A DNA stretch of 64,000 nucleotides from a plasmid. Position 1 is the stretch's first letter. Every line of letters begins with the position of its first letter. Shown piece after piece: positions 50,567 through 52,877 of the stretch. The stretch lies in NCBI RefSeq assembly GCF_055900595.2, contig NZ_JBVWEU010000002.1; one strand, 5' to 3'. The notes below the pieces were generated by a model. The model was given only the letters and a program-made list of their open reading frames with translations. It made no database searches and was not told the origin of the DNA. The position numbers and the translations under genes were made by a program.

Positions 50567-50902
50567 ATGAACAGAAAATATTATTTTAATAATATGTGGT
50601 GGGGATGGGTGACGGGGGGATATATGCTGTATATGTCATGGGATTATGATTTTAAATACAGATTACTGTTCTGGTGTATTTCTCTCTGCGGAATGGTTTT
50701 GTATCCGGTTGCAAAATGGTATATTGAAGATACAGCTCTGAAATTTACCCGGCCTGATTTCTGGAACAGCGGTTTTTTTGCTGATACTCCCGGAAAAATG
50801 GGATTGCTTGCTGTTTATACGGGTACTGTTTTCCTATTATCTCTTCCGTTAAGTATGATATATATTCTTTCTGTTATTATAAAAAGGCTGTCTGTAAGAT
50901 AG
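50567..50902 (+). CDS. Colicin Ia immunity protein (111 aa)
   Basis: Matches recalled colicin Ia immunity protein (MNRKYYFNNMWWGWVTGGYMLYMSWDY...). Convergent with, and 21 nt from, the colicin gene stop. Confidence 0.9.
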   Translation: MNRKYYFNNMWWGWVTGGYMLYMSWDYDFKYRLLFWCISLCGMVLYPVAKWYIEDTALKFTRPDFWNSGFFADTPGKMGLLAVYTGTVFLLSLPLSMIYILSVIIKRLSVR

Positions 50903-50923
50903 ACAGCCTGTCTTATATTTTAT

Positions 50924-52804
50924 TTAAATACCCCAGAACTTATTCGCTTTTTCCACTAGCGATTCATCAATCAGCGCACCGGTGACAGCCATCAGTAAAC
51001 CATACCCGATAATGCCTAAAGCGCTTCCGGTAAGAATACTGAAGACCAGTGCAACAAGAGCCGTTGCGGCATTGCCTGCTATAATCGCTTCTGTTTTAAC
51101 AAAAAGAGGACGCCAGTTCTCTGTCCGGACAGCCTTACCAAACTCAGTGATCCAGTCAGCAAGACTTGTAAATTTTCCTGCATATCCCAGTCCCCGACTG
51201 AATCTGTTCAGATTAGACGATATATCAGACAGCTTCACAGACTCAAGGGCTGCGGCAATCGCTGCACGATCTTTTGCATTAATTTTTTTGTTAATGTCAG
51301 CCCGGTACTTTTCATACGTTTTTAATGCCTCTTCAACATTACGTATTTTCTTCCCTTTAGCCTGCCCGGCCATCTCTCTGGCTAACTGCTCAGCTTTTGC
51401 ACCATATTTTTCTGAAACTGATTTCAGGAACTCTGTTGTGAAATTAATTGCGTCTTTCGTTGCCTTCAGTTCATCCTGTTTTCTTTTCTCTTCCGCTATC
51501 TTCTGATTGATGCCGGCAAGCTGGTTACGGATATTCTCTTTTTCCTTCAACAGGGCATTAAGAGCGTCATTTGCATGCTTTTGCTCATTTGTTCTGGCAC
51601 TGAGGTTATTTCTCGCCGAATTTACCGCAGATTCAGCAGAGGTGATTTTATTTCTGGCATCAAGCAATCTTTGCCGTAACTTATCCCATTCAGCAACTTC
51701 AGCATTATAAATTTTCTTGTCACCTTCCACATCCTCTGTCACCACCGGATTCCGGTCATTAAGAATATTGCGTTTATAATCCAGACCGGAATGGGTCAGA
51801 AGATAATTCAGGTTTGCACGGTTATCGATGAGCGCGCTGGTTGTGATTTTTATCGTACCGGCAAATCTCGGATCACCGCTCACAACAATAGAATGATTTG
51901 TTGATGAACGCCCCGGGAATTTTTCAGGGGAAACTATCGTTTTGCCGTCAGGTGTGTTTTTCTGTTGCGTCAGCTGTTGTTCAGCTCTGGTTAATGCATT
52001 ACGGGCCGTGTTAAGCGATTCCGTCACTGAACTGAGTTTATTCCGGGCCTCTGAAATGGCCCTGTCATTCCGTGTCTGCTGCCCGAGCAGACGGGCCTGT
52101 TGTGCATCAAGAACGGCAAGGGCTGCCCCGCCATTTTTTTCCAGCTCTGACAACCGCGTGTCCAGAATACCTTTTCTGCGCTCGTATTCAGCAAGCATAT
52201 CAGCGGCCTTCTTGTCTGTGTTCTGCGCATCCTTCTGCCGTTTTTCAGCCTGTTCGATTAACGACCTGGCCTCCCGGGGAGATATACGAAGAGAATCAGC
52301 ATCAGCAAAGAGCATCCGGCTCTCTGTATGCAGCCGGAGGGCATCATATCCGGCGATTTCAGTACGGAATCCGTATTCTCTCAGCTCTGCCTGCAGGAGT
52401 CTGAACTCCTGTCGTGTAATATCAGCGGCATCTGCGTTTCCGGCACGGAGTGTTTTCAGTGTGTTTTCATCTTTTTCCCTTGCAGCAATCGCCGCAGAGA
52501 GGCGTTTTCCGGCTTCAGTACGCTTATTCTCATTTTCTTTCTGCTGCGCGCTGAGCGTGTTTTTGTACGCTGTGATTTCCTTGTCCCTTTTTTCGATATC
52601 ACTTCGGGTTGGGGAATCATCGACCCACTCGTTTCCGCCCCAGATGGTTTTGTTCCCGAAGGAACTCCATGCAGGCGGGGTACCATGAAAGACATCGACA
52701 CGTGGAGGGTTTACATAAATATCAACGGCCATAATTTCATGGCCATCTGAATCATACCCCAGCGATTCTGCACCGGGATTTGTAATACGTACAGGGTCAG
52801 ACAT
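50924..52804 (-). CDS. cia: Colicin Ia, pore-forming bacteriocin (626 aa)
   Basis: Near-identical to recalled colicin Ia (MSDPVRITNPGAESLGYDSDGHEIMAVDIYVNPPRV... C-terminal hydrophobic hairpin ...LIDESLVEKANKFWGI). Confidence 0.95.
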   Translation of the reverse strand: MSDPVRITNPGAESLGYDSDGHEIMAVDIYVNPPRVDVFHGTPPAWSSFGNKTIWGGNEWVDDSPTRSDIEKRDKEITAYKNTLSAQQKENENKRTEAGKRLSAAIAAREKDENTLKTLRAGNADAADITRQEFRLLQAELREYGFRTEIAGYDALRLHTESRMLFADADSLRISPREARSLIEQAEKRQKDAQNTDKKAADMLAEYERRKGILDTRLSELEKNGGAALAVLDAQQARLLGQQTRNDRAISEARNKLSSVTESLNTARNALTRAEQQLTQQKNTPDGKTIVSPEKFPGRSSTNHSIVVSGDPRFAGTIKITTSALIDNRANLNYLLTHSGLDYKRNILNDRNPVVTEDVEGDKKIYNAEVAEWDKLRQRLLDARNKITSAESAVNSARNNLSARTNEQKHANDALNALLKEKENIRNQLAGINQKIAEEKRKQDELKATKDAINFTTEFLKSVSEKYGAKAEQLAREMAGQAKGKKIRNVEEALKTYEKYRADINKKINAKDRAAIAAALESVKLSDISSNLNRFSRGLGYAGKFTSLADWITEFGKAVRTENWRPLFVKTEAIIAGNAATALVALVFSILTGSALGIIGYGLLMAVTGALIDESLVEKANKFWGI

Positions 52805-52844
52805 TCGGTATCTCCTTCATCCGCTGAGGAAAACAAATGAAATA

Positions 52845-52877
52845 ACTGCTTGTATACATGGATGCATATACAGTATT
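52845..52877 (-). promoter_or_regulatory. Putative overlapping LexA (SOS) boxes in the colicin Ia promoter
   Basis: actgcttgtatacatggatgcatatacagtatt about 40-70 nt upstream of the cia start, with CTGT/ACAG half-sites. Colicin promoters are known to be LexA-regulated. Confidence 0.5.

Follow-up and report, generated by a model that had tools for sequence, protein, structure and literature searches.

The locus described here raises a question about the place of a colicin on a plasmid: is a colicin Ia module which sits on an F-type backbone exceptional, how is it controlled, and how did it arrive there? The module is formed by the toxin gene cia and the immunity gene imm (also called iia) and lies in a 64-kb stretch of a plasmid (contig NZ_JBVWEU010000002.1). 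We will call the whole of this stretch the window; positions are given in it unless another record is named. An earlier reading, made from the letters of the window and called here the sequence-only reading, had described an intact module with a candidate double LexA box. Colicin Ia being classically a feature of IncI1 plasmids (Inc, incompatibility group), it had suggested that the module was acquired with the help of an insertion sequence (IS). We find that the cia/imm pair is very probably a standard, apparently functional colicin Ia operon. Its promoter has one predicted LexA box and one predicted Fur box, which is the layout of the published promoters Pcia and Pcib. The presence of such a module on an IncF plasmid is ordinary and already known.

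The toxin gene

The gene cia occupies positions 50924-52804 on the minus strand. It is an uninterrupted open reading frame (ORF) of 626 amino acids which starts with ATG; a ribosome-binding site, GAAGGAG, can be read off the sequence at 52818-52812 on the same strand, 7 nt 5' of the start codon. Its product, Cia, is near-identical to the solved structure of colicin Ia (PDB 1CII): there are 6 substitutions in 602 aligned residues, which cover positions 23-624 (E = 0). The gene is intact, as the sequence-only reading had it.

The domains of Cia are also those of a colicin Ia. Pfam finds the receptor-binding domain PF11504 (Colicin_Ia) in residues 282-353, with 169 bits, and the pore-forming Colicin domain PF01024 in residues 440-622, with 165.5 bits. 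The receptor-binding domain of structure 2HDI matches residues 281-385. The pentapeptide EIMAV in residues 23-27 is presumably the TonB box. The C-terminal region aligns near-identically to 1CII, so the toxin is of the Ia type and not of the Ib type; the match to the pore domain of colicin Ib (8IOM) is much weaker, 182 bits.

The same length of 626 amino acids, the same set of domains and a 111-amino-acid immunity gene which is convergent likewise are found in the ColIa-CA53 type (1CII/Iia). The differences are a handful of conservative substitutions in the window proteins and the host plasmid, which is IncF instead of the classical IncI. When compared with the alleles on IncI and other IncF plasmids, Cia is 4-6 amino acids away from them. 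The substitutions A196T and V325L in Cia, together with I90L in the immunity protein, set the window alleles apart from all the alleles compared.

The annotation of cia in databases deserves a comment. The region 49000-54500 of the window is 100% identical to the Escherichia coli TUM1886 plasmid pMTY1886_IncF (NZ_CP128971.1/AP026455.1; 126,291 bp). The window corresponds to the last 64 kb of this record, and a window coordinate is the NZ_CP128971.1 coordinate minus 62,291. RefSeq calls cia on NZ_CP128971.1 as a coding sequence (CDS) of 424 amino acids with an internal start (record positions 113215-114489, WP_271171360.1). The full ORF is found at record positions 113215-115095, and an older PLSDB table has the full-length protein WP_059328027.1. 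In the annotation of p135-3 the start of cia is likewise placed internally. Pipelines which score gene presence from RefSeq proteins could therefore take colicin Ia as truncated, though the ORF of 626 amino acids and its ribosome-binding site are intact.

The immunity gene and the lysis gene

The immunity gene is found at 50567-50902 on the plus strand. It is intact, codes for 111 amino acids and is convergent to cia, with 21 bp between the two genes; the position and orientation given in the sequence-only reading are thus confirmed. The protein matches PF03526 with 30.9 bits and has 1-2 residues different from proteins of other plasmids whose annotation is 'colicin 1A immunity protein'. A terminator scan detects a hairpin between the convergent genes, at 50885-50909; TTTTAT follows it on the minus strand, and it probably acts as a bidirectional terminator.

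We also looked for a lysis gene, of which the sequence-only reading had found no trace, and our searches agree with it. A lipobox scan of positions 48000-55000 gave no small ORF, and tblastn across the window with colicin lysis proteins gave nothing meaningful. Group B colicins are without lysis genes, and prophage lysis releases ColIb (PMC7374059).

A promoter with one LexA box and one Fur box

The promoter of cia is of the sigma-70 type and occupies positions 52878-52906 on the minus strand. It has a -35 element TTGACA (52906-52901), a spacer of 17 nt and a -10 element TAAATT (52883-52878). In the promoter scan the two hexamers have 10 matches out of 12, and an alignment of seven plasmid contexts shows no variation in this sequence.

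Directly 3' of the -10 element we find a LexA (SOS) box, TACTGTATATGCATCCATGT, at 52875-52856 on the minus strand. It has the top LexA-like score in the 64-kb window, 15.7 bits, as measured with a position-specific scoring matrix (PSSM) for which about 30 E. coli LexA sites, not taken from a curated file, were used; the training sites range from 12.1 to 26.6 bits. Strict consensus searches, either for CTGT-N8-ACAG with one mismatch or for the 20-mer consensus with three mismatches, missed this real box on account of its right half, CCAT.

The double LexA box of the sequence-only reading is reduced to this single one. The second candidate, ATCCATGTATACAAGCAGTT, lies at 52863-52844 on the minus strand and is not credible. 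Its score is -2.0 bits, a background level: 176 positions of the window have scores of at least 0. The spacing is also wrong. The candidate is offset by 12 bp from TACTGTATATGCATCCATGT, whereas in the dual boxes of the ColE1 and ColA operators, which served as controls, both boxes have at least 15.7 bits and the offset is 14-15 bp. The stretch of the second candidate also carries the lineage-specific substitutions of the operator which are discussed further below.

A strong Fur box was absent from that account of the promoter. It is GTTAATGATAATCACTATC, at 52933-52915 on the minus strand, 8 bp 5' of the -35 element. Compared with the 19-bp Fur consensus GATAATGATAATCATTATC it has 2 mismatches, with 0.01 matches expected by chance, and it is nearly invariant across plasmid contexts, with one variable base inside the box. 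The functional unit reaches at least to 52933, past the end coordinate 52877 proposed earlier, because the Fur box is found at 52915-52933.

This layout has a well studied counterpart. In the homologous promoter of cib, one LexA site is combined with a Fur site 5' of the -35 element, a 'double lock' (PMC4675545; the position of the Fur site also in PMC3879352). Induction of cib by DNA damage and by iron limitation has been shown, and colicins Ia and Ib are the only colicins reported under both LexA and Fur (PMC4675545; PMC3879352). For cia itself, a UV-inducible (ultraviolet-inducible) colicin Ia activity has been shown experimentally on IncF pColV-like plasmids (PMC11968864). A useful correction results for the locus in the window: the cia promoter appears to be a LexA and Fur 'double lock' instead of a dual SOS box.

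The colicin Ib locus of the IncI1 plasmid pColIb-P9 shares with the window the N-terminal two thirds of the toxin, the LexA and Fur promoter layout and the lack of a lysis gene. It differs in the pore-forming domain and the immunity gene, which in the window are of the Ia type and not of the Ib type. The group A colicins ColE1, ColA and ColK also have a toxin gene repressed by the SOS system with an adjacent immunity gene. However, they have dual overlapping SOS boxes and a lysis gene, whereas the window has one credible LexA box, Fur as a second lock, no lysis gene and a large conjugative carrier.

The near-identity to the characterised system suggests how the module would work. Transcription of cia would start from the sigma-70 promoter. 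LexA would repress it at the single SOS box which closely follows the -10 element and Fur at the box which closely precedes the -35 element, so that expression would be highest when DNA damage coincides with iron limitation. The colicin would bind to the Cir receptor, cross the outer membrane in a TonB-dependent way and kill the target cell by a pore in the inner membrane. The producer would be protected by the inner-membrane immunity protein of 111 amino acids, encoded on the opposite strand. Without a lysis gene the release of the colicin would follow other routes, for example prophage-mediated lysis as for colicin Ib.

Colicin Ia on IncF plasmids

The sequence-only reading had taken the F-type carrier as noteworthy. 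The distribution of the module does not support this view. We have found 338 PLSDB records with at least 80% of the cia and imm module. In a sample of eight plasmids with the full-length module, taken at even steps along the PLSDB ranking, six are IncF and two are IncI. Many more plasmids, of IncI1 size, match no more than the gene segment which codes for the N-terminal two thirds of the colicin; we infer that these are colicin Ib plasmids.

At least four different IncF contexts of cia are present. One is that of the window, another is found in pColV-Ia plasmids, beside repFII-yacAB and cvaC/cvi, and two more are IncFIA/FIC plasmids with IS100 nearby. The published surveys give the same picture. 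In a survey of 2000 isolates cia and cvaC were the most frequent plasmid bacteriocins, typically together on pColV-like IncF plasmids (PMC11968864), and in sequence type 131 (ST131) an IncFII/FIB plasmid with cia-cvaC has been described (PMC6920910). A phylogeny of cia/iia from 2025 found multiple transitions between plasmid clusters, which sometimes share little beyond the colicin genes (PMC12546727). The carriage of cia on F plasmids need not be flagged as unusual: it is well documented as a competitive trait in lineages of E. coli. The significance of this locus is mostly one of correct annotation.

The pColV-Ia virulence plasmids of type IncFIB/FII (pS88-like, for example pMS8345B) may be compared directly with the window. 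Both are conjugative plasmids of the F type, their cia-iia modules have 99.0-99.5% nucleotide identity, and the acyltransferase gene and hypothetical genes which flank the module are the same. The location is different. In the pColV-Ia plasmids the module is found between repFII-yacAB-exonuclease and the cvaC/cvi cluster of microcin V. In the window it is found between sopAB with a ccdB remnant and an IS21 remnant, on one side, and a yqj-like and fimbrial module on the other; there are no microcin V genes in the flanking locus examined.

The colicin block

The travelling unit is larger than cia and imm alone. It is a block of roughly 4.4 kb, at positions 48685-53051, which is common to IncI and several unrelated IncF plasmids. 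At its left end an acyltransferase gene stands between two truncated hypothetical genes; a DUF6404 gene, imm, cia and the promoter come next, in this order.

A hypothetical gene, truncated to its 3' part (48685-49074, plus strand), forms the left edge. The gene is whole in NZ_CP027438.1 (L008), as a CDS of 813 nt at positions 5234-6046 of the latter; the homology to this plasmid begins at 48685, with 93.6-94.4% identity. The 390 bp of this segment are in none of the three IncI plasmids sampled and, among the plasmids compared, were seen in an IncF plasmid only. Next to it is a hexapeptide-repeat acyltransferase gene (49077-49559, minus strand; Pfam Hexapep, NCBIfam NeuD/PglB family). It is about 94% identical in the IncI plasmid pEC16-3, in NZ_CP027438.1 and in the three sampled pColV-Ia-type IncF plasmids which retain this stretch (L004, L011 and L012).

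A 3' fragment of another hypothetical gene follows at 49678-50071 on the plus strand; RefSeq considers it a pseudogene with its N-terminus missing. Here the window has a deletion of 614 bp when compared with IncI and pColV-Ia plasmids, with its joint at 49678-49698: positions 7625-8238 of one of the loci compared (L002) are missing. A small hypothetical gene is lost by it, and the gene next to this one lacks its 5' part. The BLAST pieces on its two sides overlap by 21 bp, which suggests a deletion between short repeats.

The DUF6404 gene (50091-50438, minus strand) is ybaA-like and codes for a membrane protein (PF19942, E = 3e-36). It accompanies imm in IncI and in several IncF contexts, and is partly deleted in the pColV-Ia plasmids. 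An NCBIfam search added nothing for the DUF6404 protein, nor for those of cia and imm. Between this gene and imm there is a Fur-box-like sequence, GATAATAATAATCAATAAC, at 50482-50500, with 3 mismatches to the consensus. It overlaps promoter-like hexamers on both strands, in a region which is AT-rich. With this candidate Fur box, imm or the DUF6404 gene might be regulated by iron.

The junctions

To the left of the block there is a remnant of an IS21-family element. Its istA gene is found at 47829-48687 on the plus strand and is 85% identical to IS21 istA. In RefSeq it is described as frameshifted, interrupted by an internal stop and lacking its C-terminus; the 3' part of the gene and istB are missing. 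The remnant has an authentic left terminus, TGTCAG, at 47829, where it interrupts ccdB, and it is broken internally at 48687, where the colicin block begins. The IS21 remnant which had been noticed earlier beside the module is therefore real and adjoins the block. It has no similarity to the intact ISEc12 of the window (34715-37017) and no alignment to IS100 in NZ_CP027438.1.

The interrupted gene is a ccdB remnant without its N-terminus (47611-47814, minus strand, as annotated by RefSeq), which is 91% identical, over 47609-47828, to the ccdB genes of other F plasmids. No ccdA is annotated near it. The ccd addiction module of the plasmid appears to be lost, with ccdB cut by the IS21-family insertion.

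The right junction is a zone, at 52938-53110, and not a point: homology ends at 52937 with the pColV-Ia plasmids, at 53020 with NZ_CP027438.1 and at 53051 with the IncI plasmids. Positions 53052-53110 have no match in any locus compared. A yqj-like and fimbrial module starts at about 53111; it occurs without cia in NZ_CP134806.1, with 90% identity. An empty site, with ccdB joined to the yqj-like module, was not identified: the two divergent plasmids with the yqj module (L006 and L007) are without homology to the left flank.

We also considered a mobile unit bounded by insertion sequences. It is rejected: the only related IS remnant is truncated and lies on the left, and the junction of the block is found inside istA. 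Nor does the block have the features of a composite transposon, with no related IS to its right and no direct or inverted repeats which bound it.

Origin of the block and of its operator

The context of the window is found in about 17-18 of the 338 plasmids with a full-length cia. The placement is judged to be derived because it is confined to these few records and because the block has truncated genes at its left edge and in its interior. The edge of the block cuts a gene which is whole elsewhere, and this indicates a secondary site. On this comparison of junctions the location is derived and specific of a lineage, not ancestral, and we are highly confident that the block was acquired by recombination, in a common type of host. 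It would have been joined by illegitimate or IS-associated recombination in this lineage, with its insertion point between the IS21-family remnant, which disrupts ccdB beside sopAB, and the yqj-like and fimbrial module.

The acquisition postulated in the sequence-only reading thus stands, as does the presence of an adjoining IS remnant. The route which it proposed is more doubtful. A direct capture, in which transposition by IS21 moved the module out of an IncI1 ColIa plasmid and into an F plasmid, would fit the contact between the remnant and the left edge of the block at 48685-48687. It would also fit the DUF6404/ybaA, hypothetical and acyltransferase genes, which flank the colicin I genes in IncI plasmids too, and IS100, a member of the IS21 family, which is near cia in two other IncF contexts. 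However, adjacency is the only evidence for a capture by IS21, and it is circumstantial. There is one IS copy, the block is joined to an internal truncation of istA, and the terminus which is retained, at 47829, faces ccdB and not the block. On the right no second IS21-family copy is found, there are no bounding repeats, and the remnant is not similar to ISEc12. An IncI1 donor is not favoured either. The flanks do share homology with IncI plasmids up to 53051, but the leftmost 390 bp have been seen, among the plasmids compared, only in an IncF plasmid. The imm segment has 99.0% identity to pColV-Ia-type plasmids and 98.1-98.4% to IncI plasmids; the 3' part of cia has 99.3-99.5% and 98.9-99.1%, respectively. 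Furthermore, cia is commoner on IncF than on IncI plasmids in our sample. We consider this route unlikely. The opposite direction, with the window as the ancestral location of cia, from which IncI and other IncF plasmids received it, is hardly credible. The module is intact here and the lineage is widespread, with the same context in isolates from human, cow, quail, pigeon, baboon and soil, but the context is rare among the full-length cia records, genes which are truncated here are whole elsewhere, and the yqj-like and fimbrial neighbour is independent of cia in NZ_CP134806.1. A block acquired by recombination remains our preferred interpretation.

Several points weigh against the picture of an ordinary, functional module acquired in this way, and the operator is among them. 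Over a promoter segment of 133 bp the identity to every other context is only 93-95%, against about 99% in the coding regions. Five to six substitutions are packed into a stretch of about 12 bp which adjoins the LexA box on its 3' side; since they cluster there, regulation may differ quantitatively from that of the studied promoters. The operator allele (52836-52936) is also rare: it is found at 99% identity or more in 28 of 1262 plasmid records. To these points we must add that the LexA matrix and the dual-box controls do not come from a curated file, that activity, inducibility and immunity are inferred from sequence, and that the loci compared do not reveal in which order and by which mechanism recombination formed the junctions. 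The divergent operator might mean that the colicin module is differently regulated or silent in this lineage, which we find quite improbable. No change is seen in the -35 and -10 elements, in the Fur box, in the ribosome-binding site or in the left half and core of the LexA box. The LexA score is slightly higher than in the common alleles (15.7 against 12.9-14.6 bits), and both ORFs are intact. Very improbable, in our judgement, is the more specific suggestion that the rare allele could retune repression, through LexA affinity or cooperativity or through the region of the transcription start, and so change the basal and induced output of colicin. A regulatory consequence of the operator allele is nevertheless possible, and it is the only mildly novel reading left for a locus which we otherwise take as a standard colicin Ia operon.

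Outside the lineage, the rare operator allele is also present on a few plasmids of Salmonella and of other E. coli. Within the lineage, H137, H141 and H143 (NZ_CP120564.1, NZ_CP127256.1 and NZ_CP082074.1) have two places which match the colicin I promoter. This suggests a second locus of colicin I type or a duplicated promoter in these three plasmids.

The plasmid backbone and neighbouring genes

The F-type backbone described in the sequence-only reading is well supported. MOB-suite types NZ_CP128971.1 as IncFIA/FIB/FIC, MOBF and MPF_F. The window carries finO, the full operon from traX to traM, sopA/sopB and a leading region with ssb, psiB, a frameshifted psiA and hok. The psiA gene with its frameshift and the intact psiB are found at 38203-38962. 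In the same leading region lies ISEc12, at 34715-37017, an intact element of the IS21 family with istA and istB. The sopC array is short: it occupies positions 44729-44919, with about 3.9 copies of a 43-bp repeat. The classical F plasmid has 12 copies of the sopC repeat.

Directly upstream of the cia promoter, and on the same strand, there is a cluster of four yqjD/E/K-like genes (53149-54615). Their products are a DUF883/CsbD-like protein, a secreted repeat protein of 117 amino acids, a YqjE-like protein annotated as 'phage holin family' and a YqjK-like protein. The cluster is found in only 21 PLSDB plasmids, where it travels with the fimbrial operon and not with cia. We considered the YqjE-like gene as a release factor for the colicin and set it aside: the cluster goes with the fimbrial operon and occurs without cia. 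A contribution of this gene to the release of colicin Ia is a more remote prospect than an effect of the operator allele.

The fimbrial operon is of the chaperone-usher type and extends over 55182-64000. It has a regulator of the PapB/FocB family, an usher, a chaperone, a subunit and a putative adhesin. The putative adhesin has 336 amino acids and in one related plasmid it is annotated as 'nuclease PIN', which looks like a mis-annotation.

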